Origin: Minisyncoccota bacterium
GTDB lineage: Bacteria > Patescibacteriota > Minisyncoccia > Phycocordibacterales > GCA-2747955
Reading direction: 5' to 3'
DNA length: 34,249 nt
Assembly (NCBI GenBank): GCA_937958705.1
Contig: CALGNJ010000038.1
Location: 1 to 34,249, forward strand
Shown piece by piece: positions 1-32,434 of this stretch. Both the position numbers and the translations under genes were made by a program. The first letter of the stretch is position 1; every line of letters begins with the position of its first letter. The notes beneath the pieces are model-generated. The model searched no databases. It was given only the letters and a program-made list of their open reading frames with translations, and had not been told where the DNA came from.

Positions 1-875
1 GTTCTCTTGAAATTTCTAAAACACATATTCGAAATCATGTTCTTCCGCGTGTGTTCTCTCTTTTTTATAAACAAGAAAAAGACACCGCTCTTTCATACAA
101 AGAGGTTCGAACTGTTATTGATGCGCTAATCGACAAAGAAGCAATTGTTAAAGAAGTGTTTAACGGATACGCTCGAGGCATCAACAGCCCCCTACCTCCT
201 ACTTCTCGGTATACGTCACAGTACGAACCTGACACCACAGCAAAAGAAGATAGACTAGAATCTGCTCGTGCATTACTCAACAAAAATTCATGGAAATTTG
301 ATACAGAAAAAAACCTTTGGACCAAAAAAATCAACAACAAAGACGTGGACTTAGCGTTTACATTACACGCACCAAATTCAGATGATCTCATACTAACTGC
401 AAATAGAATTAGGAACGACCTAGCTGAACTAGAGATCCCAGTTACTGTTCTCTACCAGGACATTGAGTCTCTGACCCAAGACGTAATCAGACCTCGAGAG
501 TATGAAATGTTGCTCTTTGGGTACGTAACAGATATCCCAGCTGATCTTCACCCCTTCTGGCATTCCTCAGGAAGAATTGATCCTGGATTAAATATCGCTG
601 AGTATGTTAATATAACGAGTGATAAAGAGCTCGAAACTATTAGGACAGAAACAGATGAAGAAAAACTATCTTCTTCATACACAAAACTACAAGAAGAAAT
701 ACGTACTGACGTACCTGCAACGTTTCTGTTTAGTCCAGAGTTTATCTATCTTCAAAGAGAACATATCAGACAAGATGCTTCATCTGGATCACTAGCATTT
801 CCTCATGATAGATTTCGGAATGCTGAAAGTTGGTACATAAAGACAGAAGAGATACTTCCGCTCTTTCTAAAGTAA
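1..875 (+). CDS. ABC-transporter solute-binding protein, family 5 (peptide/nickel type); C-terminal part only, 5' end outside the window
   Basis: The reading frame is open from base 3, with no stop before the listed GTG at 51, so the gene is cut by the window edge. The C-terminal sequence resembles OppA/DppA-type binding proteins. TAA stop at 873-875. Confidence 0.5.
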   Translation, partial: SLEISKTHIRNHVLPRVFSLFYKQEKDTALSYKEVRTVIDALIDKEAIVKEVFNGYARGINSPLPPTSRYTSQYEPDTTAKEDRLESARALLNKNSWKFDTEKNLWTKKINNKDVDLAFTLHAPNSDDLILTANRIRNDLAELEIPVTVLYQDIESLTQDVIRPREYEMLLFGYVTDIPADLHPFWHSSGRIDPGLNIAEYVNITSDKELETIRTETDEEKLSSSYTKLQEEIRTDVPATFLFSPEFIYLQREHIRQDASSGSLAFPHDRFRNAESWYIKTEEILPLFLK

Positions 876-948
876 CCAAGACAGGGATTGTCCATAAATA
901 TAGTTGATGTACTGCATCACCTACAGTTTGTGAATAATTAATAAAAAT

Positions 949-2964
949 ATGAATACAAACACACAACAAAATAGTGGTCCAAGCCACCGAGTTGGGAATA
1001 AAAAAACCCGACCACACGCTCAAAGTAAGCCGCGAACAGATGCGCCAACAAGAGCACCTGCAACAACATCAAGTTCAGCTAAACCTACGCAAGGACAGAA
1101 TCGTTCCCGGCGGCCTGCACACAATGGTGCGCAAAGACCCTCTCGGCCTTCACACAACCGAGGCTCAAATGGTCCAACACGAACAAAGAAGCACTTACAC
1201 CCTGCAGCTGGAGGAAAAGTACAAAAGCGTCGTCCATTTCATGGATCAAAGAAACACGTAGATAGGCGTCCTGTTCCAAAAATCGAAGGTGAAACAGTAC
1301 GTGTAATTCCACTTGGAGGAGTTGAAGAAGTTGGACTAAACATGTGTGCTGTTGAGTACAAAGAAAACATCTGGGTATTTGATGCTGGGTTTCAATTTGT
1401 CTCAGAAGCAGAGATGCCGGGAGTCGACTACACACTTCCAAACATTACCTACCTTGAGCAAAATAAACACAAAATCAAAGGACTTATTATTACCCATGGT
1501 CACTTAGACCATATTGGAGGTATTCCATTCCTGATCGCTCGTCTTGGTAATCCAACTATATACACAAGAAATCTAACTGCAATCATGATCAAAAAGCGAA
1601 TGCATGAGTTCCCTAACGTACCAACTCTTGATTTCCACGTAGTTGAACCAAATGACACCATGATGATTGGTGACCTTGAGTTCTATTTTTTTGCTGTGAC
1701 TCACTCTATTCCAGACTGTATCGCTACTTCAATCAGAACACCTCACGGAAATATTGTTATTACCGGAGATATCAAGCTTGAGCACAAAGACGGTATTCCT
1801 GTACCGGGTGAAGTTGAACATTGGGCGCAAGTAACCAAAGAAGATAACATCATGCTTCTTTCAGATTCAACCAACTGTGAAAACCCAGGATGGTCAATTC
1901 CAGAACCACGAATTCATGACAATGTGGATGAAATCATTAGAAACGCACAAGGTCGAATTATGATTGCAACATTTGCATCTCAATTTCGACGTATGATTGC
2001 GTTTATGAAATCTGCTGAGTCACAAGGTAAAAAAATTATCCTTGAAGGACGATCAATTAAAACTAACTTGGAAATTGCTAAGCTGGCAGGTAAATATACT
2101 CCAGCCGACGGAGTAATTATCCAAGCAGCAGATATCGATAAGTACCCAAGTGACAAGATCCTTATTCTTTGTACTGGAGGACAAGGAGAGCAATTTGCTG
2201 CCCTACCTCGAATGGCTCGTGGAGATCACAAGTACGTTAAGTTAAATAACCGAGATACAGTAATTCTTTCATCATCAGTAATCCCAGGTAATGAAATCTC
2301 TGTTCGTAACCTTATGGACTTACTACACCGAAATAATGTACGTCTTATTTCATACAAGACATCTGACGTTCACTCAACTGGACACGGAAACCAAGAGGAG
2401 CTTAAGTGGATTATTAATACGGTGCACCCAACGTACATGGTTCCAGCATACGGATATCACTCTATGCTTAAAATCCACAAGCGTCTTGCTATCGAAACAG
2501 GAATGGATGACGAACACGTAATTGTTCCTGATAATGGATCAGTAATCGAAATCAAAGGAAAAGACGACGTTACAGTACTACCCATGAAAGCACCGTCTGC
2601 ACCAATCATGGTTGATGGGTTTTCTATCTCAGACATGCAACACACAGTGATTGCTGACAGGCAGCTTCTATCTTCAGACGGAATATTTGTAACTGTTGTT
2701 TCAATTAACGTAGCGAAGAAGCAAATGCAGAAATCTCCAGATATTATTTCTCGAGGGTTTGTGTACCTACGTGAATCACAAGATCTTCTATCTCAGGCGC
2801 GAGGAATTATTAAACGAGTTACAGAAGAGCAAATCCGTAACTCTGACGGAAATCGAATTGATGTTGAGACTTTGAAGAAGCAAATTCATAAACACCTGGA
2901 ACGATTCTTGCTTAGAAAGACCAATAAGCAACCCATCATCATCCCCGTAATTTTAGTGGTGTAG
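949..2964 (+). CDS. rnj: Ribonuclease J with a basic N-terminal extension of about 110 aa
   Basis: It has the metallo-beta-lactamase motif HGHLDHIGG, followed by beta-CASP-like and RNase J C-terminal regions. Length is 671 aa, from ATG 949 to TAG 2962-2964. Confidence 0.85.
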   Translation: MNTNTQQNSGPSHRVGNKKTRPHAQSKPRTDAPTRAPATTSSSAKPTQGQNRSRRPAHNGAQRPSRPSHNRGSNGPTRTKKHLHPAAGGKVQKRRPFHGSKKHVDRRPVPKIEGETVRVIPLGGVEEVGLNMCAVEYKENIWVFDAGFQFVSEAEMPGVDYTLPNITYLEQNKHKIKGLIITHGHLDHIGGIPFLIARLGNPTIYTRNLTAIMIKKRMHEFPNVPTLDFHVVEPNDTMMIGDLEFYFFAVTHSIPDCIATSIRTPHGNIVITGDIKLEHKDGIPVPGEVEHWAQVTKEDNIMLLSDSTNCENPGWSIPEPRIHDNVDEIIRNAQGRIMIATFASQFRRMIAFMKSAESQGKKIILEGRSIKTNLEIAKLAGKYTPADGVIIQAADIDKYPSDKILILCTGGQGEQFAALPRMARGDHKYVKLNNRDTVILSSSVIPGNEISVRNLMDLLHRNNVRLISYKTSDVHSTGHGNQEELKWIINTVHPTYMVPAYGYHSMLKIHKRLAIETGMDDEHVIVPDNGSVIEIKGKDDVTVLPMKAPSAPIMVDGFSISDMQHTVIADRQLLSSDGIFVTVVSINVAKKQMQKSPDIISRGFVYLRESQDLLSQARGIIKRVTEEQIRNSDGNRIDVETLKKQIHKHLERFLLRKTNKQPIIIPVILVV

Positions 2965-3116
2965 GCAGCTTCCAAAATAGGCGTATTACATCGTCAGGTA
3001 AGTAAAATATTTTCTCAATGTATAAGACATACATCTCTCAAATATTTGACTTCCCTTCCTTGTACTACATCCTATTTTGAAACCTTAGGTTTTGTAGTGA
3101 CTTACTGAAGGATAGA

Positions 3117-3146
3117 AAAAGAGTGATGTGTACGCATCACTCTTTC
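3117..3146. terminator. Hairpin terminator, probably bidirectional
   Basis: Stem GAGTGATG, loop TGTACG, stem CATCACTC, flanked by an A5 run on the left and TTT on the right. It lies downstream of rnj (+) and of the frameshifted small ORF (-). Confidence 0.5.
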
Positions 3147-3251
3147 TACATTATTAAGCAAGAATAATCTACACGTTAGTGCATATTAAATTAAAGAGTT
3201 ATTCTTAACATATCAGCTTTTTTTGGGTTTAAAGTCGCCTTTCAATAACGC

Positions 3252-3511
3252 TTAGTGAAAATCTTGATCAACGATGATATGACCGTTGTCAAAACAGCCA
3301 TACTCCATAGTTGAATTTGTTGCATCAAAGTTTAGATAAGTTATACAAAATCTATCTGCATAGCCAACAGCTGCTTGTATCTCGTCTCCTTTAGACAAGC
3401 CTAGTGTTGGACAATCCTCATATATTTTTGCATAACAGCTGCCTGCATCTTGTAACTCAGTGTTGAAACCCCAAAATCTATTTCAATTGTAACTCTCATA
3501 ATTTTCTCCAT
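3252..3511 (-). pseudogene. Small orphan gene of about 88 codons, split by a 1-nt frameshift
   Basis: ATG at 3511 opens MEKIMRVTIEIDFGVSTLSYK..., which stops at TAG 3401-3403. A second frame is open from 3482 to TAA 3252-3254 (...ELQDAGSCYAKIYEDCPTLGLSKGDEIQAAVGYADRFCITYLNFDATNSTMEYGCFDNGHIIVDQDFH) but has no start codon. The two frames overlap around the TTTTGGGG run at 3469-3476. Confidence 0.4.
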
Positions 3512-3526
3512 AAATGAACCAGAAAC

Positions 3527-3554
3527 ACTATACTAATTATTACATACTAGTCAA
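3527..3554 (-). promoter_or_regulatory. Sigma70-type promoter for the small frameshifted ORF
   Basis: On the minus strand: TTGACT (3554-3549), 16-nt spacer, TATAGT (3532-3527). The ATG lies 15 nt downstream of the -10. Confidence 0.55.
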
Positions 3555-3705
3555 TTAATCAAACCTGTTTTACGTAGATACAGAAAGCCGGTTTGGTTAA
3601 TACATCTAGATACCTCTATGATTTTCTGATCATTGAATAAAATAGTAGACCGTCGGACAGTCAACTGCTTTTGAAATAATTCAGTATTTTACACCCCCAT
3701 CTCTA

Positions 3706-3739
3706 AATTTGAGTTCCAATCCAGATTGGAACTCAAATT
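3706..3739 (-). terminator. Terminator hairpin after the dus operon
   Basis: Perfect 15-bp inverted repeat AATTTGAGTTCCAAT / ATTGGAACTCAAATT around the loop CCAG, about 40 nt downstream of the dus stop. Confidence 0.6.
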
Positions 3740-3780
3740 GTTCATTGTTTTATTTTTGGATAAAAAATTTGGGATAATTT

Positions 3781-4815
3781 TTATATGTCTTTAAGTGTAG
3801 CAGTGATGTTGTCTAACAACTCCTTAGGTTCATGTATTTGCATAAGCTCGTTCCGAACCTCCTTTGCGCCCGGGAACCCATTAACATACACCTTTAAAAA
3901 CTTCTTCATTAAGTAAAACGACTTAATTCGCTTTCCAAACTCTTTCATATTACGCTTTGTTGGTCCAAAATTAGCCTCAAATAGGGTAATATGCTCTTTG
4001 AGCAACATGTATCGCTCTTTGACACTTGGTACCCTGTCAGCGTCAAATAACAGAGGATTCTTAAATATTCCTCGTCCAATCATCACTCCATCTATTCCAT
4101 ACTTGCTAATTTTTGCGTACGCTTCTTCTTTAGTATTTATGTCTCCATTCCCGAGCAATAGAGTATGTGGTGATATCCTGTCTCTCATCTCTCTAATCTC
4201 CGTCATGAGCTCCCAGTGAGCAGGAACTTTGGACATCTCTTTTCTAGTGCGTAGATGAATAGTCAGCATGTCTACATCTTGCTCCAAAAGAAACTGTATC
4301 CAGGAAATATCAATCTCATTCCATCCAAGTCTAGTTTTTACCGCCACATCAAGTTTAGGAGCTCCTTCTTTAACAGCCTGTATTAATTTTCGTGCCAGTT
4401 CTCTGTTTTCTTTCTTTATTAGCTCTGCACCACAAACCTGCTTATTAATGGTTCTTGAAGGACATCCTGTATTAATATCCACACCATCGAAACCCAGTCT
4501 CTGAACTAGAGCCGCACCTTGTCTAATATTGTCTGGTTTACCTGAAAATATTTGTGCTATTACCGGAGACGTGCTCCTTTGTTTCTTGGTATATTCCAAA
4601 TCTCTAAGCAGACGTTTCCTCCCTGTTGGATGAGCAAGACCATCTGCCGAGACAAACTCTGTATATAAAAGATCTGGCGTAGAATACTTAGCTAGTATTT
4701 CTCTAAATGCATTATCTGTGACATCTGCCATGGGTGCAATAACACAAAGCCCCTTCCCTTGTGTTTTCCCGAGAGCTTTTTTCCATATTCCTTTTTTATT
4801 CTTTTTTAAAAACAT
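3781..4815 (-). CDS. dus: tRNA-dihydrouridine synthase
   Basis: Dus-family motifs are present (APMADVTDNAFR, GVDINTGCP, TIM-barrel layout). I prefer ATG 4815 (MFLKKNKK...). The listed start at 4875 is a TTG only 5 nt from the ftsQ-like stop. TAA stop at 3781-3783. Confidence 0.8.
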   Translation of the reverse strand: MFLKKNKKGIWKKALGKTQGKGLCVIAPMADVTDNAFREILAKYSTPDLLYTEFVSADGLAHPTGRKRLLRDLEYTKKQRSTSPVIAQIFSGKPDNIRQGAALVQRLGFDGVDINTGCPSRTINKQVCGAELIKKENRELARKLIQAVKEGAPKLDVAVKTRLGWNEIDISWIQFLLEQDVDMLTIHLRTRKEMSKVPAHWELMTEIREMRDRISPHTLLLGNGDINTKEEAYAKISKYGIDGVMIGRGIFKNPLLFDADRVPSVKERYMLLKEHITLFEANFGPTKRNMKEFGKRIKSFYLMKKFLKVYVNGFPGAKEVRNELMQIHEPKELLDNITATLKDI

Positions 4816-4880
4816 ATTTTTTATTTTTATCCTCTTGTACGTAAAGTCCAACTGCGCGGATAAGGAGGTGTTCAAGATAA

Positions 4881-5708
4881 TTATCTATAATTAACTGCAC
4901 ATACCTCACCTGAGACGCAGGAGAAAATTTTCTTACCGAACTGTAAGTTTATGTATGCATAATCTACTTTAAAATCTTTTGTATCTTTTGAGACCTTAAA
5001 TGATTCTGTATTTAAAAGTTTCACAAGCAATGAATACAACTCATCGTATGATGTGGTTTTAGGTAACAGTAGTCTTGTCCCTTGCCGGGTGATCAGAGCC
5101 ATAGTAAATTCAGAGTACTCTTCGATAGTCACAATTTCTAATCCTTTACCAGAAATAGAGTCAACCAAGATACCAAGCTCAGAAATTATCTGTTCATTCA
5201 GATATATTTCACCTATACTGTACGTCTTATTACTTGTAAATATTGGAGCCCCTTCTTGTGCCTTCCCTTCAATTATCTTAAATACGACTCCAGTTCTATC
5301 AAGATAGTAACAATTCTCTGTTTGACATAATGTATACGAAGCGTCCCTCTCTTTCACATCTATCTCCAGTCCAGTAAGACCATTTCGTGTTATCTTCAGA
5401 GACTCAATTTCTGTAAATCTTTTAGTTAGTTCCCGTGCAATATCTTTTTTTGACAAAAATATAGTATTAGATTTTGGTATAACAAACACACGATTACCCA
5501 ATAGACTCGTTTGAGCCTCAGCAACGATAGTCTCTGTCTGTACAAACTGATTTTTAACCACAGAAATAGTCTGTATCTGAAGTGCCTCAATACGCATTAC
5601 ATACACAAAGACAGCGAGCACTACTAGACACAACACTAAAAAAGAAATAAAGAGTCTCTTTCTTTGCTTGTTTCTTTTTACTGCGCGCTTGTTATTTTTA
5701 TATACCAT
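4881..5708 (-). CDS. ftsQ: Cell-division protein FtsQ/DivIB-like (N-terminal TM helix plus POTRA domain)
   Basis: A basic N-terminus and a single TM helix are followed by a POTRA-like segment (IQTISVVKNQFVQ...LEIDVKERD). The ATG overlaps the serS stop as TAATG at 5706-5710. Confidence 0.55.
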   Translation of the reverse strand: MVYKNNKRAVKRNKQRKRLFISFLVLCLVVLAVFVYVMRIEALQIQTISVVKNQFVQTETIVAEAQTSLLGNRVFVIPKSNTIFLSKKDIARELTKRFTEIESLKITRNGLTGLEIDVKERDASYTLCQTENCYYLDRTGVVFKIIEGKAQEGAPIFTSNKTYSIGEIYLNEQIISELGILVDSISGKGLEIVTIEEYSEFTMALITRQGTRLLLPKTTSYDELYSLLVKLLNTESFKVSKDTKDFKVDYAYINLQFGKKIFSCVSGEVCAVNYR

Positions 5709-6970
5709 TATCCAATATATTCTTGCCCTCCCATGAACGGCCTGAGCACAGCTGGAATCTCAATTGTTCCATCTACTCGTTGAAAATTCTCTATTAGTGA
5801 CACCAAAATCCGTGGAGTAGGAATGGCTGTACAATTTAGTGAGTGCGCGTATGCAAGTTTCCCTTGCTCATCTTTATATCTGATATTAAACCGCCTTGTT
5901 TGAAAATCATGAAAATACGAAGCGGATGATATTTCTCGATATTTTTTTTCTCCGGGCACCCATAGTTCAATATCATATTTTTTAACCTGCCCCTGTCCAA
6001 GATCCCCTCCACAGTTTAAAACTGTTTGATATGGAATACCGAGTGATTCAATAAACTCTTCTGTATTTCGATTAATCCACTCATGCCATTTTACAGACTC
6101 AGTATGTGAAGCTTCACACAGCATTACCTGTTCAAGCTTGTAAAACTCATGCACACGAACCAAACCTTTGGTATCTTTACCGTATGAACCGGCCTCACGT
6201 CTATAACATGGAGAGAATCCTAGATATTTGAGCGGTAGCTCTTCTTTATTTACTACTTCATCCCGGTGGTATCCCATCATAGGAACCTCAGCTGTTCCGG
6301 CAAGATAATCCTCATCTTGTGTTTGATATACGTCCTCAGCCTCATTAGGTAAATGACCTGTTCCATATAAATTTTCTTTTCTCACTATGGCTGGGGGGAT
6401 CACTGGAATAAATCCCTTCTCTTGGAAAAATTGATTTGCATAGTTCCAGATAGCCCAAGATAGACGCGCTCCGTCACCAAGTAAGTAATACCCTCTAAAC
6501 CCATGTACTTTTGAACCTCGTTCAAAATCAACCATTCTATGTTTACTCATCAAGTCAACATGAGACTGTGTATCAAAATCAAATACTGTTTGTTCGCCCC
6601 ATGTTTTAATTTGCAGGTTATCAGCATCGTCTTTTCCATCAGGAACTGACATGTCAGGCACGTTGGGTACTTGAAGCATCAGCGCTTTCCACTCAACCAT
6701 AATAGGCTTGAGTGTTTCTTCTAGACCCTGAATCTCTGCTTTGACTACAGAAACGCTTTCGATCAGTCTCGTTCTTGTCTCCTCTGTTGCCTGAGCTATT
6801 TGCTTAGATGCCTCGTTCTGAACAGACCTCTTTTCGTCAATTGCCTGTTGAATATTTTTTCGCTCATCATCAAGAGCAACTAGTCTGTCTAGGTCAATAT
6901 CTGTATGTTTCTTTATTGCACCCGCCTTAACTACATCAAGGTTCTCTCTTATAAATTTTATATCTAACAT
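5708..6970 (-). CDS. serS: Seryl-tRNA synthetase
   Basis: 420 aa, with an N-terminal coiled-coil arm (MLDIKFIRENLD...) and class II core motifs. Full length. Confidence 0.92.
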   Translation of the reverse strand: MLDIKFIRENLDVVKAGAIKKHTDIDLDRLVALDDERKNIQQAIDEKRSVQNEASKQIAQATEETRTRLIESVSVVKAEIQGLEETLKPIMVEWKALMLQVPNVPDMSVPDGKDDADNLQIKTWGEQTVFDFDTQSHVDLMSKHRMVDFERGSKVHGFRGYYLLGDGARLSWAIWNYANQFFQEKGFIPVIPPAIVRKENLYGTGHLPNEAEDVYQTQDEDYLAGTAEVPMMGYHRDEVVNKEELPLKYLGFSPCYRREAGSYGKDTKGLVRVHEFYKLEQVMLCEASHTESVKWHEWINRNTEEFIESLGIPYQTVLNCGGDLGQGQVKKYDIELWVPGEKKYREISSASYFHDFQTRRFNIRYKDEQGKLAYAHSLNCTAIPTPRILVSLIENFQRVDGTIEIPAVLRPFMGGQEYIG

Positions 6971-6978
6971 GTTTTCTT

Positions 6979-7818: not shown

Positions 7819-7885
7819 GATTAGGTTATTGTAACAAATATCACATTAATATATTCAACCGATTAATTCACAGACATGATAATAC

Positions 7886-22189: not shown

Positions 22190-22208
22190 TTTGATTCTAC
22201 TTGATTCT

Positions 22209-23780: not shown

Positions 23781-23804
23781 AAAAAGCAGGGTGCTTTCCC
23801 TGCT
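23781..23804 (-). terminator. Terminator after the Nudix gene
   Basis: On the minus strand: AGCAGGG, loop AAAGCA, CCCTGCT followed by TTTTTC. Confidence 0.7.
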
Positions 23805-23815
23805 CTATTTCTTAA

Positions 23816-24583: not shown

Positions 24584-24612
24584 CTTGTGAGTATAGCAGA
24601 GTATTATTATCT

Positions 24613-25203: not shown

Positions 25204-25226
25204 TACAAATAAAATCCTTTCAGGTA

Positions 25227-25254
25227 GCGCACCATTTCATGGTGCGTCTTTTTT
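25227..25254. terminator. Bidirectional terminator between convergent genes
   Basis: GCGCACCAT, loop TTC, ATGGTGCG followed by a T run. Confidence 0.7.
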
Positions 25255-25255
25255 A

Positions 25256-25660: not shown

Positions 25661-25679
25661 AAGCAAAGTATATCAAATC

Positions 25680-25699
25680 AAAATAGCCCTTACGGACTA
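25680..25699 (-). terminator. Terminator after module B
   Basis: On the minus strand: TAGTCC, loop GTAA, GGGCTA followed by TTTTGATTTG. One G-U pair exists only in the minus-strand RNA. Confidence 0.55.
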
Positions 25700-25715
25700 T
25701 CTTTAGATATACGTG

Positions 25716-25837
25716 CTACCGGACTAAGACTCAGCGCCAGTTCTAATTCACTACGTTCATAAGAACTCGCTGCCCCGTCCCTCACCTCCTCACTTCGTTT
25801 GTCGAGAGTTCGGTCTTGTTCGAGTCCAGTTCCAATA
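25716..25837 (-). ncRNA. Module B: unclassified 122-nt structured element 3' of tRNA-Gln
   Basis: The 5' arm is antisense and the 3' arm is sense to the tRNA-Gln 3' half. The core is homologous to module A, with compensatory changes in the stem of a shared hairpin. See findings. Confidence 0.45.
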
Positions 25838-25842
25838 GGTAT

Positions 25843-25882
25843 AACAAAATCACCCAGCCTATTCAGACTGGGTTCATTTGTT
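25843..25882 (-). terminator. Long hairpin directly after tRNA-Gln
   Basis: On the minus strand: AACAAA-TGA-ACCCAG, loop TCTGAATAGG, CTGGGT-GAT-TTTGTT. Confidence 0.5.
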
Positions 25883-25887
25883 ACATG

Positions 25888-25958
25888 CTACCGGACTAGG
25901 ACTCGAACCTAGATTGCCTGGACCAAAACCAGGTGTCCTGCCATTAGACGATCCGGTA
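25888..25958 (-). tRNA. tRNA-Gln (anticodon UUG)
   Basis: The 71-nt cloverleaf folds by hand: UACCGGA acceptor, anticodon arm CCUGG-UUUUGGU-CCAGG, T arm CUAGG-UUCGAGU-CCUAG. It has a U1-A72 pair and G73 discriminator, and no encoded CCA. Confidence 0.88.
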
Positions 25959-26068
25959 ATGTGGATCTGTGATAATTTTATTAGTTATTTTCTAACCAGG
26001 CAAGCCTGGACCGCTATAGTCTTAATTGCAGGTGTCCTGCCATTAGACGATCCGGTAGTGTGGATCTG
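25930..26068 (-). repeat. 40-nt direct repeat (39/40): tRNA-Gln 5' flank plus tRNA positions 1-29
   Basis: The copies lie at 25930-25969 and 26029-26068. On the minus strand each reads CAGATCCACA(T/C)TACCGGATCGTCTAATGGCAGGACACCTG. Confidence 0.9.
26004..26057 (-). pseudogene. Truncated tRNA-Gln copy: 5' two-thirds, altered anticodon loop, no T arm
   Basis: It is identical to tRNA-Gln through CCTG. A 16-nt stretch CAATTAAGACTATAGC then replaces GTTTT, GGTCCAGGC is shared again, and the sequence diverges into the hairpin CCAGG-CTTG-CCTGG. Confidence 0.6.
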
Positions 26069-26119
26069 ATGTGCGATAAGATGTTGTTCAAGAATCGGCA
26101 CGGTTTTAAATCAAGGCCG

Positions 26120-26264
26120 CGGGTGATTCGAAATCGGGATCAAGTCTCTAAACTCACTTCGTTCGTTAAGAGCTTCCTCCCCGGGCTCACCTAGTCACTT
26201 CGTGACTTATGGCTCCGCCTTTCGATTCTCTACACAAGCAAAGCAGTTTGCTTGCTCATCACCC
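26120..26264 (-). ncRNA. Module A: unclassified 145-nt structured element 3' of tRNA-Trp
   Basis: The 5' arm is the exact reverse complement of tRNA-Trp nt 54-72, interrupted by a 25-nt hairpin insert. The 3' end is ATCACCCG. The core is homologous to module B. See findings. Confidence 0.45.
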
Positions 26265-26266
26265 TT

Positions 26267-26286
26267 GAAAACGCGTATGCGTTTTC
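26267..26286 (-). terminator. Hairpin directly after tRNA-Trp
   Basis: GAAAACGC, loop GTAT (ATAC on the minus strand), GCGTTTTC. Confidence 0.55.
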
Positions 26287-26288
26287 TG

Positions 26289-26359
26289 CGGGTGATGAGA
26301 GAATCGAACTCCCGACGGCGGTTTTGGAGACCGCAGTTATACCACTTAACTAATCACCC
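26289..26359 (-). tRNA. tRNA-Trp (anticodon CCA)
   Basis: The 71-nt cloverleaf folds by hand: GGGUGAU acceptor, anticodon arm GCGGU-CUCCAAA-ACCGC, T arm GGGAG-UUCGAUU-CUCUC. Discriminator G, no encoded CCA. Confidence 0.9.
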
Positions 26360-26436
26360 AATGGCTGACATTATAACTGATATTAGTTATAAGTGCACCA
26401 TTTTTACTAACAAAGAGCGCGCCGGGGCGCGTGTCT

Positions 26437-26592
26437 TTATTTTTTAGTCTCTTTGTACGTTACGTGTTTTCGTGCAATAGGATCAAACTTCTTAAACGAT
26501 AGTTTATTTTCTACTGACTTTTTGTTACGTCGTGTGTACCGGATGTGTCCAGTCTCTTCTGACTTAACTTTTACAAGATGTTTCTGTGCCAT
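26437..26592 (-). CDS. rpmG: 50S ribosomal protein L33
   Basis: [51 protein letters not shown], 51 aa. The true ATG is at 26592. Confidence 0.85.
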
Positions 26593-26678
26593 AATGTGAA
26601 GTATCATACTAAAAAACATACAAAAAGCAACTGTATTACTTGGTATAAAAAATCACGCTCATGCGTGATTTTTTACTT

Positions 26679-27002
26679 TTAGCAAACTTTCTTTTTTGCT
26701 TTGAAGTGTTGTGTAAGTAGGTAGTACACAGTAAGTCGCGATTTTGTTCGATCCTTCTTCATAGTCGCTGCAACCATTTCGATTGCCTCATCTGCTTTTG
26801 CTTTGCTTTTTACTCCAAGCCGTCCCATTACAAAGTTTCTTCGTACTCGTCCCACCTCTTTTGCGTCTGAGAATGCTACAAGTCGTGCATCCCTTCGCGC
26901 CAATGATCCTGCTAGACGTCGGTATAGAGCTTCCACAAGTTCCATATCCGGCTTTTTGTCATACTTCTTGATATCTTCAAGATGTTTTTTATCCATTGCC
27001 AT
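26679..27002 (-). CDS. DUF2853-family protein
   Basis: 107 aa. The C-terminal ...KSRLTVYYLLTQHFKAKK and central RRNFVMGRLGV match my recollection of the DUF2853 pattern. Confidence 0.5.
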   Translation of the reverse strand: MAMDKKHLEDIKKYDKKPDMELVEALYRRLAGSLARRDARLVAFSDAKEVGRVRRNFVMGRLGVKSKAKADEAIEMVAATMKKDRTKSRLTVYYLLTQHFKAKKKVC

Positions 27003-27069
27003 ATGTCTGTACTATTGATTTATTAATAATGAGTTTATTATACCCATAAAAGTTACAGCCATGCAATAG

Positions 27070-27657
27070 CTACATGTTATCTATTATCTCTTGAACTTCA
27101 GACCATGATGAACATATTGCATGTGTATCTCCCTGTTCAAAAATCTCACGTGAATGCAATCCAAATGTTACACCTATTGTCTTAATCCCAAACTCGTTAC
27201 CTTCGTGCACATCTCCTAAAGTGTCTGTAATAAAAATAGTCTCCTCTTTACTAAACCCATGTTTATCCGCAATAGCCCCAAACTTAATAACTTTTGATTT
27301 TGAAGCTCTGTAGCCGAGTACCTCTAAAAAATATCTTCTCACGCCGTTTCGAATTAGGTACTCTTCGATAATCAACTCATCGCTAGAAGATACAATTGCT
27401 AACTTCTTATCTTTGTTTGCTTCCAAGAAGTCTTTTGTTTCTTTGGTGGTTGAGTATCCATCGTAGTACCTTTTCATGTCAGTGAAAAAACTATCATTAT
27501 TCACCTTCTTTATCTCCTTGTCGTCATGTATATTCCCCATGAAAGCATTCCGGGTCTGTTCTCGTGAAAAACCTGAATATTTTTGATTTAAATCGTACAT
27601 TGCTTCTGTACTATCATGAATCACCCCATCAAAGTCAAAAATAATATTCTTAATCAT
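27070..27657 (-). CDS. HAD-superfamily phosphatase (phosphoglycolate phosphatase-like)
   Basis: MIKNIIFDFDGVIHDS is the DxDG motif I, and there is a later TDTLGDVHEGN motif. ATG 27657 overlaps the dnaX stop as ATGATTAA. Confidence 0.75.
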   Translation of the reverse strand: MIKNIIFDFDGVIHDSTEAMYDLNQKYSGFSREQTRNAFMGNIHDDKEIKKVNNDSFFTDMKRYYDGYSTTKETKDFLEANKDKKLAIVSSSDELIIEEYLIRNGVRRYFLEVLGYRASKSKVIKFGAIADKHGFSKEETIFITDTLGDVHEGNEFGIKTIGVTFGLHSREIFEQGDTHAICSSWSEVQEIIDNM

Positions 27658-28681
27658 TTTGTGATTCAAATAAGTTAAATAAGTATAGTTCAAACGTCGC
27701 TTCTGGATTCTGAGAAGCATCAAAAGAAGTAACCACCTTGATTAAATCTTGGAGATGTTTTGATGTAATCTTTTCCATTTTTTCATATGTCGCAACTTTG
27801 TCTACGCCTGAATCAAGAGCTAGGTGCTCTTTATGTGCTTTTGAGTACCTCACCAAAAGTACGTTGCGGACTTCCTCTAATACATTCTTCACAAAAACCT
27901 CTCTGTCTATGCTCAGGTCTTTAGTCTCATGATATACAGAGAATACCTCATCCCTATCTCGATTATTTAGCGCCTCAATAAACTTTACTACCAGATCATT
28001 ATCAGACACATTCATTATTTGTGAGACTTGTTCAAAAGATATATCTCCCTCTACGTATGCAAATACCTTTTGTAAGTGAGACAACGTGTCTCTAAAGGAT
28101 CCATCTCCCAAAGACGCAATAAATTGGGCTGACTCTGCATCAATCTTTCTTTCTTCCAGGCCACATACCTTCTCCACTAGCTCTACCAATAGTGCGCTAT
28201 CTGGTCTATTAAAATCAAAAACCTGACACCTGGAGATAATAGTGTCTAAAATCTTGTGTTTTTCTGTTGTCGCAAGGATAAACAGCACGTGGGATGGTGG
28301 TTCCTCAAGTGTCTTTAACAGAGCGTTAAATGCCTCCTTGGTGAGCATATGCACCTCATCAATGATATACACCTTATAATCTGAATTAAAAGGTCGTGTG
28401 TCGACACCAGCACGTAGTTCGCGTATCTCACCAATACCTCGATTAGATGCTGCGTCGATTTCATAGATATCCTGATCTGATGTTCCAAGCTCTTTTGCAA
28501 AGATACGAGCAATAGACGTCTTCCCTGTTCCTCTCGTTCCTGAAAATAAGTATGAGTGCGAAATTGACCCCTGCTTAATTGAGTTCTGCAACACAGAGAT
28601 AACTTCGTCTTGTCCTAAGATGTCTTTAAATTTTTGTGGACGATATTTTCTATACAGTGTTTCTGAAATTACTTGTGTCAT
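27650..28681 (-). CDS. dnaX: DNA polymerase III gamma/tau subunit, short form (343 aa)
   Basis: Walker A GTRGTGKTS, DEVHML and the sensor region are present. There is no tau-specific C-terminal domain. Confidence 0.85.
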   Translation of the reverse strand: MTQVISETLYRKYRPQKFKDILGQDEVISVLQNSIKQGSISHSYLFSGTRGTGKTSIARIFAKELGTSDQDIYEIDAASNRGIGEIRELRAGVDTRPFNSDYKVYIIDEVHMLTKEAFNALLKTLEEPPSHVLFILATTEKHKILDTIISRCQVFDFNRPDSALLVELVEKVCGLEERKIDAESAQFIASLGDGSFRDTLSHLQKVFAYVEGDISFEQVSQIMNVSDNDLVVKFIEALNNRDRDEVFSVYHETKDLSIDREVFVKNVLEEVRNVLLVRYSKAHKEHLALDSGVDKVATYEKMEKITSKHLQDLIKVVTSFDASQNPEATFELYLFNLFESQND

Positions 28682-29021
28682 ATTGTTTTCATTATAACAA
28701 AGAGAGCTGGTCTTAACCCAAAATACTAATCAGTAGCACACCGACAACAACAAAAAAACCGAGGACCTATTTCTTTCTAAGGTTCTTCTCTTTAAAAAAC
28801 ATTCCTCTAATAGCAATGGTAATGATGATGGAAGATATTTTTATTGTTACAACATACACGACCAATACATTTAAGATTGCAATCATCTGAATTATCAACT
28901 GGAATACAGCAAAGTCATAACTACTGAAAAGAAAACAGTCACTGCGAATGCAGAATTATCAACATTATCAAAAGACCACAGGAACATGAGGAGCAGATAC
29001 GCAAGAGGGATAGAACCGATA

Positions 29022-29050
29022 TAAAAAACAATACATGATGTATTGTTTTT
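29022..29050 (-). terminator. Terminator after the Gly-rich gene
   Basis: AAAAAACAATAC, loop ATGAT, GTATTGTTTTTT. Confidence 0.7.
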
Positions 29051-29053
29051 TGC

Positions 29054-29085
29054 TATATATATATATGTGTGTGTGTGCTCTCTCT
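29054..29085. repeat. Compound dinucleotide microsatellite (TA)6-(GT)5-(CT)4
   Basis: TATATATATATATGTGTGTGTGTGCTCTCTCT, read directly between the gene stop (29095-29097) and its terminator. Confidence 0.95.
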
Positions 29086-29094
29086 AAAATGAAA

Positions 29095-30540
29095 TTATTG
29101 AACGATATATGCGGAACGTGTTGGGTGAGTATATGTTGGTGCAGCATTAGGAACTGGGAATACTGACCCGTAGTTATCTCCTTGTACTGTACCTGCAATG
29201 TCCATAAATCCAGCTCCAATCATCATAAGGTCTCTACTCGATGCACCTCTTGCACTGATCTCGAGTGCCTTCACAACCGCACCTCCGTCTCCACGAATAC
29301 CAAATACCCCTCCTTTAACTTGCGCGCGCTTTGCATCAATCATTACCATTCCACTTGCTTGGATATTTGTCCTCCCAGCATCAAATGCAAATGTCTCCCA
29401 CGCACTCGTATATCCGTCGTTTGTTTGGTAAATATTGATAAGTCCATTGTATCCAAAAGAAGATCTGTCTATACATATGCTACACCACCATTTTTACTAA
29501 ATACACCAAACTTCGCATTACCAAATGAACCAGCGCTTTCCATGTAGAGCATCCCTCCTCCATATTGACTCTGGAATCCTGAACCAGCTGCACCGAGTGC
29601 AACTACTGGTCCTTCTCCGCCCTCATCAGAGAAAATAGATCCCCCATAGTGAGTTGAAACATTTGTAGAGTTTGCACCTAGGAAGTACATATTATCTAAA
29701 TAAATATTTGCTCCATCTCCAGTAATTCGACCTCCATCTCCAGTAATTAAACCATACTTACCATTACCTTTGTTAATAAAAACAAGTCGTGAATAAATAC
29801 CTCCATTCTTACCTTTTAATTGAATACCGTTACCATTTTTGTATTCAATAATAGTCGCGTATCGTTGTCGCAGTAGTGCTTCATTTGCGGCTAAGTCACT
29901 CGCACGAGATGCTGCGTCACTCCCTGTAGCTAGAATATCAACAGAAGAGATTTCGTTACCGTCTTCATCAACTAGCTGCCCCTCAGCAGTATATCGAGGA
30001 ATAGTTGGTACTGGACCAATCATTGGTGCACCTATTGTGATGATAGTTCCATTGTGGCCATCAATACCTTCAATTCTTTGATTCTTTTGACCATCGAACA
30101 CAAATACGCCTGGTGTGAATTGTCTAGTAATAATTACACCGTCATCAGAAGATCCTCGTGCTAACACATCTTGAATACGCATGAACTCATCGACTGAATC
30201 AATAGTGAACGTTAAGTCTTTGTCGATGTGATACAGCTCTTGTGGCGCACGCACTTCCCACTTTCCTGTATTCGCGTTATATCTCTCAAAGACTGTATCA
30301 ATTTCATTAAAGCGAATCTCAAACATCTTGGGTGCAACCTGTGAAGCTGCAACAGTGGCATAATCGGGAACAGAAATAGTTGTAAGTTTTGTATTTATGA
30401 TTTGGTTTAGTGTCGCATTACTACTGGTATCAGATGTCTGTGCATATGCAAAAAAAAGCAGAGAACAAAATCCCTACTATCACATACGTAATTATATTAA
30501 AAATAGAGTATTCTAGAAATTTAACGGAAGATTTTTTCAT
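29095..30540 (-). pseudogene. Secreted Gly-rich repeat protein (about 480 codons) interrupted by two frameshifts
   Basis: ATG 30540 encodes a signal peptide, MKKSSVKFLEYSIFNIITYVIVGILFSAFF. The frame is lost at the A8/T8 tract (30450-30457), just before the AYA-Q cleavage motif. The 285-aa ORF (29469-30326) is open upstream to that point. A third frame is open from about 29490 to 29095 with no start codon until 29349. Confidence 0.6.
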
Positions 30541-30643
30541 AAAATATTTATTATTATTTTTGCATTATAACAAATATTTAAGTTATCTTAGAACAGTTTA
30601 TAAACTGCTTGTCAACCATCCTGTACATTCTTTGTTTACTGTC

Positions 30644-32434
30644 TTAGATTTTAGAACCTGCTCTTTTCCGAGCAGACTCTGTCAGGTGGGCTTTTCTAAG
30701 TCTCACCTCGTTTGGAGTGACTTCGATATATTCGTCTGACCTCATCATTCCAAGAGCCTTTTCTAGAGTAACTTCCATAGGTGGCGTAAGCTTTACCGTT
30801 CCGTCAGATCCAGATGCACGCATGTTGGTCAGCTGCTTACCTTTGGTGGGGTTAACCACCATGTCTTCTCCTTTTGCGGTATTTCCCACAACCATACCTT
30901 CATAGACCTCTTGGTTTTGTGAAATGTATAGTGTCCCGCGCTCCTGCATGTTTGCAATTGAAAACCCAAGTGCCTTACCTGTTGCCATAGCAATCATTGA
31001 TCCTCGCTCAGTCTTTTGAATTTCCCCTGCAAAAGGCCGGAACCCAATCACAAGTGTGGTTAAAATTCCCTCCCCCTTAGTATCAACAATGAATTCATTT
31101 CGATATCCGAGTAATCCTCTAGTTGGCATCTCGAATGTCATTTTGGTTTGAGAACCATCTTGCTCCATATTCACCATGATTCCTTTTCGTTTTCCAAGCT
31201 TTTCAATTACATTTCCTGAGAATTCTCCAGGCACTAGAATAGTCACCTCTTCAAACGGCTCTTGTTTAACACCATCAATTTCTTTAACGATAACTTCTGG
31301 TTGAGATACGGCTAGTTCAAATCCTTCTCGACGCATGTTCTCGATTAGAACAGCAAGATGCATTTCTCCACGTCCAAATACTTGATATCTTGAATCATCT
31401 GAGAAATCCACCTGTAGACCTACGTTGATCTCTAGCTCTTTTTCAAGTCGTTCACGAATCTGCCGAGATGTTAAAAATTTACCAACCTTTCCTGCAAACG
31501 GTGAATCGTTTACAAACATAAATAGTCCAATAGTTGGCTCATCAACTGAAATAGCTGGCAGAGCCTCTGTCTCTTCATCAAGAACAATCGTCTCTCCAAT
31601 AAAGATCTCTGGAATACCCGCAATCATCACAATGTCTCCAGCTGTTGCTTCTGAGACCTCTTCTTTTGCCATCCCCTTGAATGAGAATAGTTTTGTTAAC
31701 TTACCTTTGTAGACTTTACCTTCAGCATCTTTTACCATTACTGATGCATTTGCTGGTAGTGTTCCTTCGTATACACGACACACACCCATTCTTCCTAGGA
31801 AGTTATCATATGCAAGGTTAAACACCTGTGCCTTGAGGGGTTGCGATTTAAGGTCGTCTCCAGATGCAGGAGCTACTTTCTCTAGTACTAAATCAAGAAG
31901 TGGTGTTAGGTCCGCAGACTCATCAGTCATTTCTTTTTTAGCAATACCGTCTCGTCCAATTGCGTATACGGTCTCGAAGTCCAATTGTTCTTCTGTTGCA
32001 CCCAGATCCATAAATAGTTCGTATACCTCGTCGTGTGCTTTTTCAACATCTGCCGCTGGTTTATCAATCTTGTTCAAAACAAGAATAGGCCTTAATCCAA
32101 GCTCTAGTGACTTTTTAAGTACAAACTTAGTTTGTGGCATTGGCCCCTCTGCCGCATCCACCACAAGCAACACTGAATCAATTGAACGCAATACTCGCTC
32201 AACCTCTGATCCAAAGTCAGCATGGCCTGGTGTATCAAGAATATTAATCTTTGTATCTTTATATAAACAAGACGTATTCTTTGCGTAGATGGTGATTCCT
32301 CGCTCTTTTTCAAGATCATTCGAGTCCATTGATGCACCCTCTTCGGTCATCCCTGTTTGTTTTAAAATTTCATCTGTAAGTGTTGTCTTTCCGTGATCAA
32401 CGTGGGCAATAATTGCGATGTTTCTGATTTGCAT
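30644..32434 (-). CDS. typA: Translational GTPase TypA/BipA
   Basis: 596 aa with MQIRNIAIIAHVDHGKTTLTD, DTPGHADF, NKID and a BipA-specific C-terminal domain. Confidence 0.93.
   Translation of the reverse strand: MQIRNIAIIAHVDHGKTTLTDEILKQTGMTEEGASMDSNDLEKERGITIYAKNTSCLYKDTKINILDTPGHADFGSEVERVLRSIDSVLLVVDAAEGPMPQTKFVLKKSLELGLRPILVLNKIDKPAADVEKAHDEVYELFMDLGATEEQLDFETVYAIGRDGIAKKEMTDESADLTPLLDLVLEKVAPASGDDLKSQPLKAQVFNLAYDNFLGRMGVCRVYEGTLPANASVMVKDAEGKVYKGKLTKLFSFKGMAKEEVSEATAGDIVMIAGIPEIFIGETIVLDEETEALPAISVDEPTIGLFMFVNDSPFAGKVGKFLTSRQIRERLEKELEINVGLQVDFSDDSRYQVFGRGEMHLAVLIENMRREGFELAVSQPEVIVKEIDGVKQEPFEEVTILVPGEFSGNVIEKLGKRKGIMVNMEQDGSQTKMTFEMPTRGLLGYRNEFIVDTKGEGILTTLVIGFRPFAGEIQKTERGSMIAMATGKALGFSIANMQERGTLYISQNQEVYEGMVVGNTAKGEDMVVNPTKGKQLTNMRASGSDGTVKLTPPMEVTLEKALGMMRSDEYIEVTPNEVRLRKAHLTESARKRAGSKI

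Follow-up and report, generated by a model that had tools for sequence, protein, structure and literature searches.

An in-frame UGA codon conserved in prfB of a bacterial genus with few UGA stops

The genome described here comes from a Paceibacteria-like bacterium (CPR/Patescibacteria) that appears to retain the standard genetic code, and its gene for release factor 2 (RF2), prfB, carries an in-frame UGA at codon 23 that is conserved in all species of the genus. We consider it likely that UGA serves this lineage as a stop codon only rarely and probably weakly, that RF2 synthesis hangs on readthrough of the UGA within prfB and is thereby placed under feedback, and that the lineage is a poised intermediate on the way to reassignment. 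The window, i.e. the whole stretch of DNA that was analysed (34,249 nucleotides), is contig C38 of an assembly (G000) that comprises 607,369 bases in 49 contigs and is 86% complete. The features discussed are collected in Table 1.

It has long been asked how a stop codon can acquire a new meaning while the cell survives, and few natural intermediates are available. Here one small family holds the full series: genomes with an ordinary prfB and few UGA stops, genomes in which prfB is apparently gated by its own codon and almost no other UGA is found, and RF2-less species in which about three quarters of the Trp codons are UGA. As the middle state is persistent across a genus of common environmental bacteria, the route in which RF2 is weakened first becomes directly testable.

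Table 1. Location of the features in the window and in assembly G000
Feature	Location	Strand	Basis or remark
prfB (RF2 gene)	G000:C21:2549-3415		HMM search
dipZ-like gene with in-frame TGA	G000:C7:17990-19240	-	Pfam
Stretch without any credible TGA-ending protein gene	window 1..32434	.	25 TAA and 9 TAG among mechanical ORFs; Pfam identity for 10 ORFs
63-aa ORF, spurious, sole TGA-ending mechanical ORF of the window	window 25878..26069	+	overlaps tRNA-Gln on the opposite strand
tRNA-Gln(UUG), neighbour of tRNA-Trp	window 25887..25958	-	tRNA search
tRNA-Trp, anticodon CCA	window 26288..26359	-	sole Trp-type tRNA detected in G000

The release factor gene prfB and its internal TGA

According to HMM searches G000 has two genes for class-I release factors. 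The one on contig C21 scores 276 bits with prfB as opposed to 183 bits with prfA, and 291 as opposed to 186-190 bits in a further comparison, so the RF2 loss that had been suggested from the window alone did not take place: prfB is present alongside a second class-I release factor gene. It retains the release factor motifs SPF and GGQ, which are invariant in alignment A1. Its match to TIGR00020 (291 bits, below the cut-off of 370) covers only positions 113-347 of the 353 positions of the model; the protein is N-terminally short (288 aa), and the same shortness is seen across the order.

The in-frame TGA lies at C21:2615, and the two halves of the gene share one frame. In alignment A1 it sits at the W of a 'DFW' motif, and all 6 TGG-bearing relatives have Trp at this position. 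The same TGA is present in five separate assemblies, i.e. in all three species of the genus (G000, G001 and G002), in one species of a neighbouring genus (G010) and in one metagenome contig (locus L291), and each time there is an in-frame ATG 22-24 codons upstream (5 out of 5 occurrences). Among the matches listed in an order-wide survey (150 of 374), G000 alone has an internal TGA.

Within the genus, dN of prfB is 0.14-0.17 whereas dS is saturated, which means that the gene is under purifying selection and is no fresh pseudogene. The 22 codons 5' of the TGA, being few and variable, do not reveal selection by themselves. Internal restart is unlikely, since the first in-frame Met after the TGA is residue 77, which lies within the conserved domain. 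RF2 and species trees are congruent, so prfB is vertically inherited, and the distribution of its TGA on the tree requires that the codon arose twice or reverted twice. The possibility that a TGA-bearing prfB moved horizontally between G010 and the genus was considered and rejected, as the RF2 tree puts G010 together with G004 and G007 (support 93/90) and apart from the genus.

TGA as a stop codon in the window and in the genome

Stop codons were counted in a mechanical set of non-overlapping ORFs (at least 60 aa, window up to position 32700). The 35 ORFs end with TAA (25), TAG (9) and TGA (1), and the single TGA-ending ORF is spurious because it is antisense to the tRNA-Gln gene. No credible gene of the window is thus terminated by TGA, in agreement with the original prediction; its 7 TAG became 9 here, where two doubtful small ORFs were retained. 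The full length that it ascribed to conserved genes is confirmed by Pfam for RNase J, the PBP transpeptidase, EF-G, GatB, the DinB-type IMS polymerase and TypA. Note that the TGA trinucleotide as such is not avoided, since it occurs 617 times off-frame inside window genes of at least 100 aa (the in-frame number is 0 by construction).

Genome-wide, TGA terminates at most 27 out of 560 ORFs of at least 100 aa (4.8%), an upper bound given that ORF calling was mechanical and several of these ORFs are spurious, and 2 out of 310 core genes; the rarity seen in the window therefore extends throughout the genome. Two of the TGA-ending ORFs, C23 602-1789 and C49 8-340, are of low complexity and probably spurious. 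At the genome's own rate (27/560) the probability of finding no TGA in 32 stops is about 0.21, i.e. unremarkable, versus about 3e-5 at the rate of G028, a genome of the same order (29/105), so the real signal is genome- and family-wide rather than specific to the window.

The share of TGA in ORFs of at least 100 aa is 27.6% in G028, 12.9% in G012, 7.6% (44/576) in G003, 6.7% in G001, 2.0% (2/102) in G007 and 1.8% in G010. Since the GC content of G028 (0.43) is similar to that of G000, composition alone is insufficient to explain the depletion. In G012, which belongs to another family, TAG also exceeds TGA. The depletion is family-wide and includes genomes with TGG in prfB (G003, G007), consequently the UGA of prfB is neither its sole nor its first cause.

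It had also been proposed that UGA is unassigned, which did not hold, as real genes terminate with TGA at their natural C-termini. In 6 genes of G000 the TGA comes after complete Pfam domains, and in 2 out of these 6 the C-terminus is common to the ortholog of the same genus: the Aminotran_5 gene on C41 has a TGA stop where the ortholog in G001 has TAA, and the gene at C20 1247-2089 and its ortholog in G001 have a TGA stop at the identical residue. A search for back-up stops 3' of TGA gave p=0.28 with all 12 ORFs of at least 200 aa; in a subset of n=8 hand-picked post hoc the one-sided value was p=0.017, a weak result.

At the same time UGA is avoided and is no general sense codon, and this part of the original prediction is borne out for the whole genome. 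In ORFs of at least 150 aa, TGG occurs 1273 times in frame and TGA not once, and there is no in-frame TGA in EF-G, UvrA or SecA. When ORF proteins of three relatives were compared to G000 by tblastn, TGA in a sense frame was found solely in prfB and at one site of nrdA, a screen that covers genes with homologs in G001, G003 or G008. The idea that conserved genes have no in-frame TGA is thus valid for the window, but not for the genome, where prfB and a dipZ-like gene contain one each. The nrdA site (C2:10928) was dropped as a third case. There an in-frame TGA takes the place of an invariant Gly codon in ribonucleotide reductase, and the sole long contig of run X1 over the site differs at exactly that base, where G gives GGA (Gly, depth 10); the TGA is either an assembly error or a minor variant. 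As this was the lone TGA at a Gly column and is GGA in the independent contig, G000 does not display the signature of code 25 (UGA = Gly). Neither does it display that of code 4 (UGA = Trp): codon 23 of prfB is the only TGA at a conserved Trp column, prfB is kept, tRNA(UCA) is not detected, and counting TGA as a sense codon raises the coding fraction by little, from 0.825 to 0.845. Another apparent internal-TGA match, C49 16788-17621 (+), proved to lie antisense to the gene for ribosomal protein S5, and when more conserved internal TGAs were sought in DNA of the same genus, off-frame matches flooded the result.

The tRNA-Trp of the window has the anticodon CCA, as originally read. ARAGORN detected 24 tRNAs in G000 (86% complete), among which the Trp-type is solely CCA and none is tRNA(UCA). 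A whole-genome DNA search with tRNA-Trp(CCA) and the tRNA(UCA) of G008 as queries found no second Trp-type tRNA in G000 and G001; G002 matched neither query, its tRNA-Trp being unassembled, and is hence uninformative. PMC13092985 provides, in its available text, the idea that a 4-bp anticodon stem makes tRNA-Trp read UGA. We rejected this for tRNA-Trp(CCA), since all 10 genes of the family have 5 pairs.

The TGA-AG context and relatives with code 4

The dipZ-like gene has a Pfam DsbD_TM domain at residues 4-212, TGA at codon 258 and an AhpC-TSA/Redoxin domain at residues 272-402, i.e. the TGA is located in the linker between the membrane domain and the redoxin domain. The gene has exactly one in-frame TGA in G001 and in G002 as well, where the matches span query residues 1-415 and 1-416, respectively, in one frame. 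Fused dipZ homologs without a stop are the norm. There is an ATG 12 codons past the TGA, and two separate genes are possible in principle.

All internal TGAs (5 in prfB and 3 in dipZ, 8 out of 8 occurrences) have the context TGA AG(A/G/T) G. By comparison, AG follows 0 out of 26 other terminal TGAs in G000, 29 out of 560 stops of any kind in this genome and, as the next dinucleotide, the corresponding codon in 4 out of 37 TGG-bearing RF2 loci. The codon after the internal TGA varies in the genus (AGA, AGG or AGT, i.e. Arg or Ser), whereas AG is constant. On the 5' side of the prfB UGA the codon is TTT, which gives the context TTT TGA AGA. One ORF of G001 (C30 15429-17318) also ends with TGA AGA; its extension is 16 codons only and it has no homolog in G000.

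The neighbouring genus (g4) shows where such a lineage may lead. RF2 genes were not found in four of its species (G005, G008, G009 and G011), which, judging from their genes, read TGA as Trp (code 4). When TGA is treated as sense, the coding fraction of G008 rises from 0.555 to 0.856, and its TGA plus TGG amount to 10.7 per 1000 codons, compared to 9.5-10.2 for TGG in G000, G001 and G003. Of the 16 TGAs in RNR genes (G008, G009 and G011), 13 are at all-W columns, and three of the four species (G005, G008 and G009) possess a Trp-type tRNA(UCA). In G008 the tRNA-Trp(UCA) gene adjoins the same tRNA-Gln/tRNA-Trp pair that is found in the window. In its anticodon arm and discriminator the tRNA(UCA) of the family corresponds to tRNA-Trp and not to tRNA-Gly. 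Code-11 genomes are nested among the code-4 ones in g4. The view that RF2 is weakened in an intermediate state preceding reassignment fits the conserved UGA of prfB and the completed reassignment in the neighbouring genus; the endpoint of the relatives is UGA = Trp, however, and not the UGA = Gly of Gracilibacteria/Absconditabacteria (code 25) that had been considered too.

Possible mechanism, alternatives and known systems

We propose that full-length RF2 is made only if UGA codon 23 is read through. The likeliest reader would be the near-cognate tRNA-Trp(CCA), which would restore the Trp residue and which we presume to act at both internal UGAs. RF2 terminates at UGA, so a UGA inside its own gene is expected to create a negative feedback: ample RF2 would halt its own synthesis after 22 residues, and scarce RF2 would permit readthrough. 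With little RF2, termination at UGA may in turn be poor and an exchange of UGA for UAA and UAG be favoured, which would leave the lineage poised for full reassignment of UGA to Trp as completed in the four species of the neighbouring genus. A more far-reaching idea, to which we would give somewhat less than an even chance, is that UGA-AG is a programmed, context-dependent readthrough signal of the genus, i.e. that UGA has a dual meaning. The prfB loop would then replace the +1 frameshift, dipZ would have two products, one short and one long, and the state would be stable and might have served as a launch pad for repeated, independent RF2 loss and adoption of code 4 in the neighbouring genus.

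One can ask whether an ordinary standard code would suffice, with TGA rare through mutational bias or drift in a small, AT-leaning genome and the internal TGAs being tolerated, leaky nonsense codons of no role. TGA is indeed already rare where prfB has TGG, TAG outnumbers TGA in another family too, and the back-up-stop test is weak. We nevertheless regard this explanation as unlikely, because G028 uses TGA so much more often at a like GC content, the prfB TGA persists through saturated synonymous divergence in five assemblies and demands two origins or two reversions, and AG is kept next to all eight internal TGAs despite the changing codon; moreover, RF2 being what it is, any UGA within prfB is tied to RF2 activity. 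It is much less probable that UGA means Trp everywhere already, with TGA codons just starting to accumulate and RF2 being kept for UAA. The invariant Trp at the prfB site and the code 4 of the sister lineages would agree with it, and certain code-4 bacteria are described, in the available text of PMC13695967 and 10.1101/2023.03.27.534433 (preprint of PMC10540940), as having no tRNA(UCA). However, the absence of TGA beside 1273 TGG codons, only two conserved internal TGAs genome-wide, TGA terminating conserved genes exactly at the TAA or TGA of the ortholog, the retained SPF motif of RF2 and the missing tRNA(UCA) all speak against it.

That UGA is unassigned, read by no factor and simply avoided, as first proposed, would account for a window without TGA stops and for the low number in core genes. 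It is hard to reconcile with a prfB that is intact save for its UGA and under purifying selection, with at least six Pfam-supported genes terminated by TGA and with two conserved internal TGAs, which makes it highly improbable. Errors in the assembly or consensus of this metagenome-assembled genome may account for one of the three in-frame TGAs first found (that of nrdA, contradicted by the contig of run X1), but the prfB TGA recurs in five separate assemblies and the dipZ TGA in three, so there is even less reason to believe that the remaining ones are artefacts. We attach practically no credence to selenocysteine or to bypassing by a frameshift. UGA is the selenocysteine codon and prfB the textbook frameshift gene; still, selB had no match at the cut-off of 242 (GTPase cross-hits reach 82 bits at most), tRNA-Sec was not found in G000, the prfB site is an invariant Trp, and no change of frame occurs across either TGA.

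It is natural to compare the prfB gene described here, which we still take to depend on readthrough, to that of E. coli, in which codon 26 is an in-frame UGA and autoregulation works through a programmed +1 frameshift at this site (10.1101/2024.09.24.614795, available text). In both cases there is an early in-frame UGA, and RF2 synthesis needs (here presumably) a failure of RF2 termination at it. The differences are numerous. There is no change of frame in our case, UGA is preceded by TTT as opposed to the CTT of the E. coli motif, and it is followed by A instead of C. UGA stands in place of a Trp codon, so that near-cognate reading would give the normal residue, and the short RF2 does not include the region in which the E. 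coli site lies. Apart from the early UGA, none of the features of the +1 frameshift is seen in G000, i.e. neither a downstream ORF in the +1 frame nor the CUU U slippery site nor UGA-C.

A closer parallel is the leech symbiont 'Candidatus Providencia siddallii' PSAC, where according to the available text of 10.1101/2023.03.27.534433 a UGG>UGA change in prfB was proposed as the trigger of recoding and the A after UGA was invoked for readthrough by tRNA-Trp. Both systems keep prfB with an in-frame UGA, have only tRNA-Trp(CCA) and retain some UGA stops. On the other hand, about 20% of the genes are reported to have an internal UGA in PSAC, compared to 2 genes in about 560 ORFs here, and PSAC is a single symbiont lineage while here a whole genus and one species of another share the codon at saturated synonymous divergence; the organism in our case is a CPR bacterium, not an endosymbiont of the insect or leech type. 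Among the Mollicutes, Acholeplasmataceae and phytoplasmas resemble the present family in that TGA stops are few, prfB is retained without the frameshift motif and relatives are prfB-less with UGA = Trp, but the available text of 10.1101/2024.09.24.614795 describes no in-frame UGA in their prfB.

Within Minisyncoccia, a class of the Patescibacteriota, reassignment of UGA to Trp (code 4) was published in 2026 for the family JAKLIH01 and the genus GCA-2747955 (PMC13695967, PMC13092985; available text). The code-4 species of g4 share its hallmarks (TGA at Trp columns, a Trp-type tRNA(UCA), no prfB), a likeness that does not equate g4 with GCA-2747955, and in contrast to those published genomes G000 is not reassigned. 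PMC13695967 identified prfB in all code-11 genomes, and an in-frame UGA in prfB is not mentioned in its available text. Calls of prfB presence or absence conceal an internal stop of this kind, and annotation with table 11 splits or truncates both prfB and dipZ in these genomes.

Stop codon use in the window and in the genome

The window is the entire contig C38 of the assembly studied, G000 (607,369 bases, 49 contigs, GC about 0.40, 86% complete), and its source is a small CPR genome. In a mechanical count over a non-overlapping set of ORFs of at least 60 aa, the window has 25 TAA, 9 TAG and 1 TGA stops; the single TGA-ending ORF was rejected as a gene as it overlaps a tRNA-Gln on the opposite strand. 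The original prediction that no gene here ends in TGA therefore holds, tRNA-Trp(CCA) lies where it had been placed, and the normal gene lengths proposed under the standard code agree with Pfam, by which RNase J, the PBP transpeptidase, EF-G, GatB, the DinB-type polymerase and TypA are full-length. At the genome's own rate, the chance of finding no TGA among 32 stops is about 0.21 by simple arithmetic. The window alone is an unremarkable sample, and the depletion signal is genome-wide. The window also holds an iGluR-like ORF of 350 aa (SBP_bac_3, Lig_chan and Lig_chan-Glu_bd), and the genome, about 0.6-0.7 Mb in size, thus encodes a prokaryotic ionotropic-glutamate-receptor-like channel.

Positions of the features discussed (C, contig; G000, genome studied; G003, same family; G007, neighbouring genus)
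Feature	Position	Strand	Remark
16S rRNA gene, complete	G000:C38:32744-34236	-	contig end; 1346 bits
iGluR-like ORF	G000:C38:16710-17762	-	
prfB	G000:C21:2549-3415		
in-frame TGA of prfB	G000:C21:2615		codon 23
dipZ-like gene	G000:C7:17990-19240	-	
dipZ-like ORF as far as TGA	G000:C7:18467-19240	-	open for 158 more codons
TGA in nrdA	G000:C2:10928		rejected
gene with shared TGA stop	G000:C20:1247-2089		
TGA-ending ORFs	G000:C34:249-1076, 1188-2261		contig of 5345 bases
tRNA-Ile(UAU)	G000:C44:7302-7375		
gene with homolog in G003	G000:C49:21350-22711		
in-frame TAA	G003:C1:84375		
UvrA homolog	G007:C16:9754-12429		in-frame TAA

The avoidance of UGA as a stop, proposed from the window, is confirmed by the genome-wide count: ORFs of at least 100 aa (n=560) end in TAA (414), TAG (119) or TGA (27), and TGA ends 12 of the 356 ORFs of at least 200 aa. 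Of these 27, just 5 could be matched to a homolog in G003 or G008 (a code-4 species of the neighbouring genus g4), and at least 2 are low-complexity noise. Among 310 reciprocal-best pairs with G003, a complete genome used as the relative, TGA is the stop of 2 genes on the G000 side and of 9 on the G003 side. The depletion is graded over seven genomes, the TGA share of ORFs of at least 100 aa being 27.6% in G028 (another family, GC 0.43), 12.9% in G012 (another family), 7.6% in G003, 6.7% in G001 (same genus), 4.8% in G000, and 2.0% and 1.8% in G007 and G010 of the neighbouring genus. Both ORFs listed for contig C34 are TGA-ending; one has, by eye, a Bacteroidota-style signal peptide at its start, and the contig may be mis-binned.

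UGA still terminates in G000. Genes with Aminotran_5, Aminotran_1_2, YaaA, methyltransferase, PASTA and DUF4377 domains have the complete domain before the TGA; the Aminotran_5 gene (contig C41) and its G001 ortholog stop at one and the same residue, the latter with TAA, and the C20 gene and its G001 ortholog have a TGA stop at the identical residue. The coding fraction is hardly altered when TGA is read as sense (0.825 to 0.845). No tRNA(UCA) is present among the 24 tRNAs detected in this 86% complete assembly, and no second Trp-type tRNA came up when the full G000 and G001 genomes were searched at DNA level with tRNA-Trp(CCA) and a relative's tRNA(UCA); G002, the third species of the genus, matched neither query and is uninformative on tRNA(UCA). 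The proposal that UGA is unassigned is contradicted by the six Pfam-supported TGA-ending genes, two of which share their end with an ortholog. UGA in G000 serves as a stop, though rarely, and its two exceptions are putatively programmed.

In-frame TGA codons in prfB and in a dipZ-like gene

Both class-I release factors are present, prfA-like on contig C23 and prfB-like on C21. The latter has prfB as its top model match, and its score falls below the curated cut-off because only model positions 113-347 of 353 are covered. RF2 is N-terminally short throughout the order (about 285-300 aa), matching the prfB model from 113 with most of domain 1 missing. The prfB of G000 has an in-frame TGA across which the frame is unchanged, and in the RF2 alignment it takes the place of the W in a 'DFW' that is invariant in 6 TGG-bearing relatives; neither the SPF nor the GGQ motif is disrupted. 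The TGA is common to the three species of the genus, to G010 and to a metagenome contig whose RF2 locus is 79% identical, two further loci being excluded from this count as repeats of G002 and G010 over the compared part. An in-frame ATG lies 22-24 codons upstream in 5/5 carriers, and no further in-frame Met occurs before residue 77, which is within the conserved domain; the only route to full-length RF2 in G000 crosses UGA at the Trp position. A stop at this codon is absent from all 37 TGG-bearing RF2 loci inspected, and in an order-wide sample of 401 genomes the internal TGA occurs only in G000 among the 150 of 374 matches listed. Within the genus dN is 0.14-0.17 and synonymous sites are saturated, which argues that the interrupted prfB has been maintained as a functional gene for a long time. 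RF2, whose loss or weakening had been proposed, is present, with its motifs intact and under selection: it is not lost but probably gated by its own codon. In both sampled genomes of another family (G020, G136) there was no RF2 match at 1e-50; G020, which is 98% complete, has an RF1-like gene and a reductase without internal TGA.

The dipZ-like gene appears, on sequence grounds, to use the same device as prfB. The read-through product would comprise a DsbD_TM membrane domain and an AhpC-TSA/Redoxin domain, joined by a linker in which the TGA is codon 258. Most of the homologs among the matches listed by a search of 5.8 billion proteins are fused, and for some, which span the whole query, the source gives the name cytochrome c biogenesis protein DipZ; the 11 closest clusters listed (81-91% identical) are called as proteins of 250-267 residues that end in the linker. 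G001 and G002 have exactly one in-frame TGA each, in single-frame matches to query residues 1-415 and 1-416. An ATG is found 12 codons downstream of the TGA, and the 'LLTMKKKAPEF' around it is also internal to an uninterrupted homolog; by eye, no export signal of its own is evident in the part after the TGA.

The 8 internal TGAs, 5 of them in prfB and 3 in dipZ, all stand in the context TGA AG(A/G/T) G, a count that overstates independence as the sequences are related; the species tree requires at least two events at prfB and one at dipZ. AG follows 0 of the 26 other terminal TGAs in G000, 29 of its 560 stops of any kind, and the Trp codon in 4 of the 37 TGG-bearing RF2 loci. The codon after the internal TGA varies within the genus (AGA, AGG, AGT; Arg or Ser) and AG is constant. 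An A 3' of UGA is reported to favour tRNA-Trp readthrough in E. coli, as cited in the accessible part of 10.1101/2023.03.27.534433.

A candidate third case, in ribonucleotide reductase (nrdA), where TGA replaces an invariant Gly codon, is unique to G000 and was rejected. The codon is GGT in G001 and G002, and an independent contig from sequencing run X1 reads GGA, the sole difference from the assembly in 778 bases. Either the assembly is wrong at this base or it captured a minor variant, and the case is a warning of consensus errors in the assembly. In-frame TAA codons were also seen in relatives: in the UvrA homolog of G007, possibly a pseudogene, and in a G003 gene 52% identical over 413 residues to the C49 gene.

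Proposed mechanism and published reports

We infer that tRNA-Trp(CCA), to which UGA is naturally a near-cognate codon, would insert Trp at the prfB UGA, and that RF2 would compete at this codon and so restrict its own synthesis. Low RF2 would make UGA a poor stop, with selection for UAA and UAG. TGA is depleted also in family members whose prfB has TGG, so weak UGA use either preceded the prfB UGA or has an additional cause; a candidate for such a cause, as a guess, is the clade's short RF2. An in-frame prfB UGA has been proposed as a recoding trigger in a leech symbiont (10.1101/2023.03.27.534433, accessible part), and the accessible text of a survey of prfB frameshifts (10.1101/2024.09.24.614795) mentions Patescibacteria 0 times. 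By full-text search and in the published material available to us, supplementary per-genome prfB lists aside, we found no report for this group of either the conserved prfB UGA or the dipZ site.

Code-4 relatives and the history of UGA

No RF2 gene was found by protein or prfB model query in the four code-4 species of g4 (G005, G008, G009, G011). The RF1-like gene of G005, G009 and G011 contains 1-3 in-frame TGAs, and no class-I release factor gene was found in G008. In the 265 kb of G008 analysed (GC 0.275), the coding fraction rises from 0.555 under table 11 to 0.856 when TGA counts as sense; of the 668 TGA+TGG codons 504 are TGA, and the two codons together reach 10.7 per 1000 codons, near the 9.5-10.2 TGG per 1000 in G000, G001 and G003. 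EF-G, UvrA and SecA carry 1-3 TGAs per gene wherever matched in the four genomes, and 0 in the other eight. In a reductase alignment G008, G009 and G011 together have 16 TGAs, of which 13 lie at columns that are all W in code-11 sequences, 2 at a column with Y in these sequences and W in G009, and 1 at a variable column. A tRNA(UCA) of 72 bases occurs in G005, G008 and G009, its anticodon arm and discriminator matching tRNA-Trp and not tRNA-Gly; a search with a relative's tRNA(UCA) did not find it in G011. Of the endpoints considered in the original prediction, code 4 (Trp) and code 25 (Gly), these W columns and the Trp-type tRNA indicate Trp and not Gly.

A four-protein species tree, inferred by careful search from 3216 columns and with genus g2 assumed as the root, gave (g2, (g1, (G004, (G008, ((G010, G011), (G005, G007, G009)))))), g1 being the genus of G000, with strong support on 8 of 9 inner branches and G010 filling just 13% of columns. 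On this tree the prfB TGA needs two changes: it arose separately in g1 and in G010, or it arose once and reverted in G004 and G007. The RF2 tree groups G010 with G004 and G007, which argues for vertical inheritance of RF2 and more than one RF2 loss in g4. The code-4 genomes are not a single clade and are interleaved with code-11 species of g4, and their tRNA(UCA) genes (G005, G008, G009) are 93-97% alike; together this points to either several RF2 losses from an ancestor already having tRNA(UCA), or transfer of the tRNA. The pattern is consistent with an ancestor in which UGA was already set to change its meaning.

According to the accessible parts of two reports, UGA-to-Trp in Patescibacteriota was first described in 2026 for family JAKLIH01 (PMC13092985), and JAKLIH01 and genus GCA-2747955 share it, with three code-11 genomes nested (PMC13695967). 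G000 is in a real intermediate state of UGA reassignment, apparently a stable one. The lead of the original prediction was sound, and its interpretation is corrected on RF2, on the status of UGA and on the endpoint residue in relatives.

A tRNA-Ile(UAU) is present in G000 and also in G001, G003, G008 and G010. Since it occurs across the family, and the 40 tRNAs of the complete genome G003 include just two tRNA(CAU) genes, AUA reading in the family may need no lysidine-modified tRNA.
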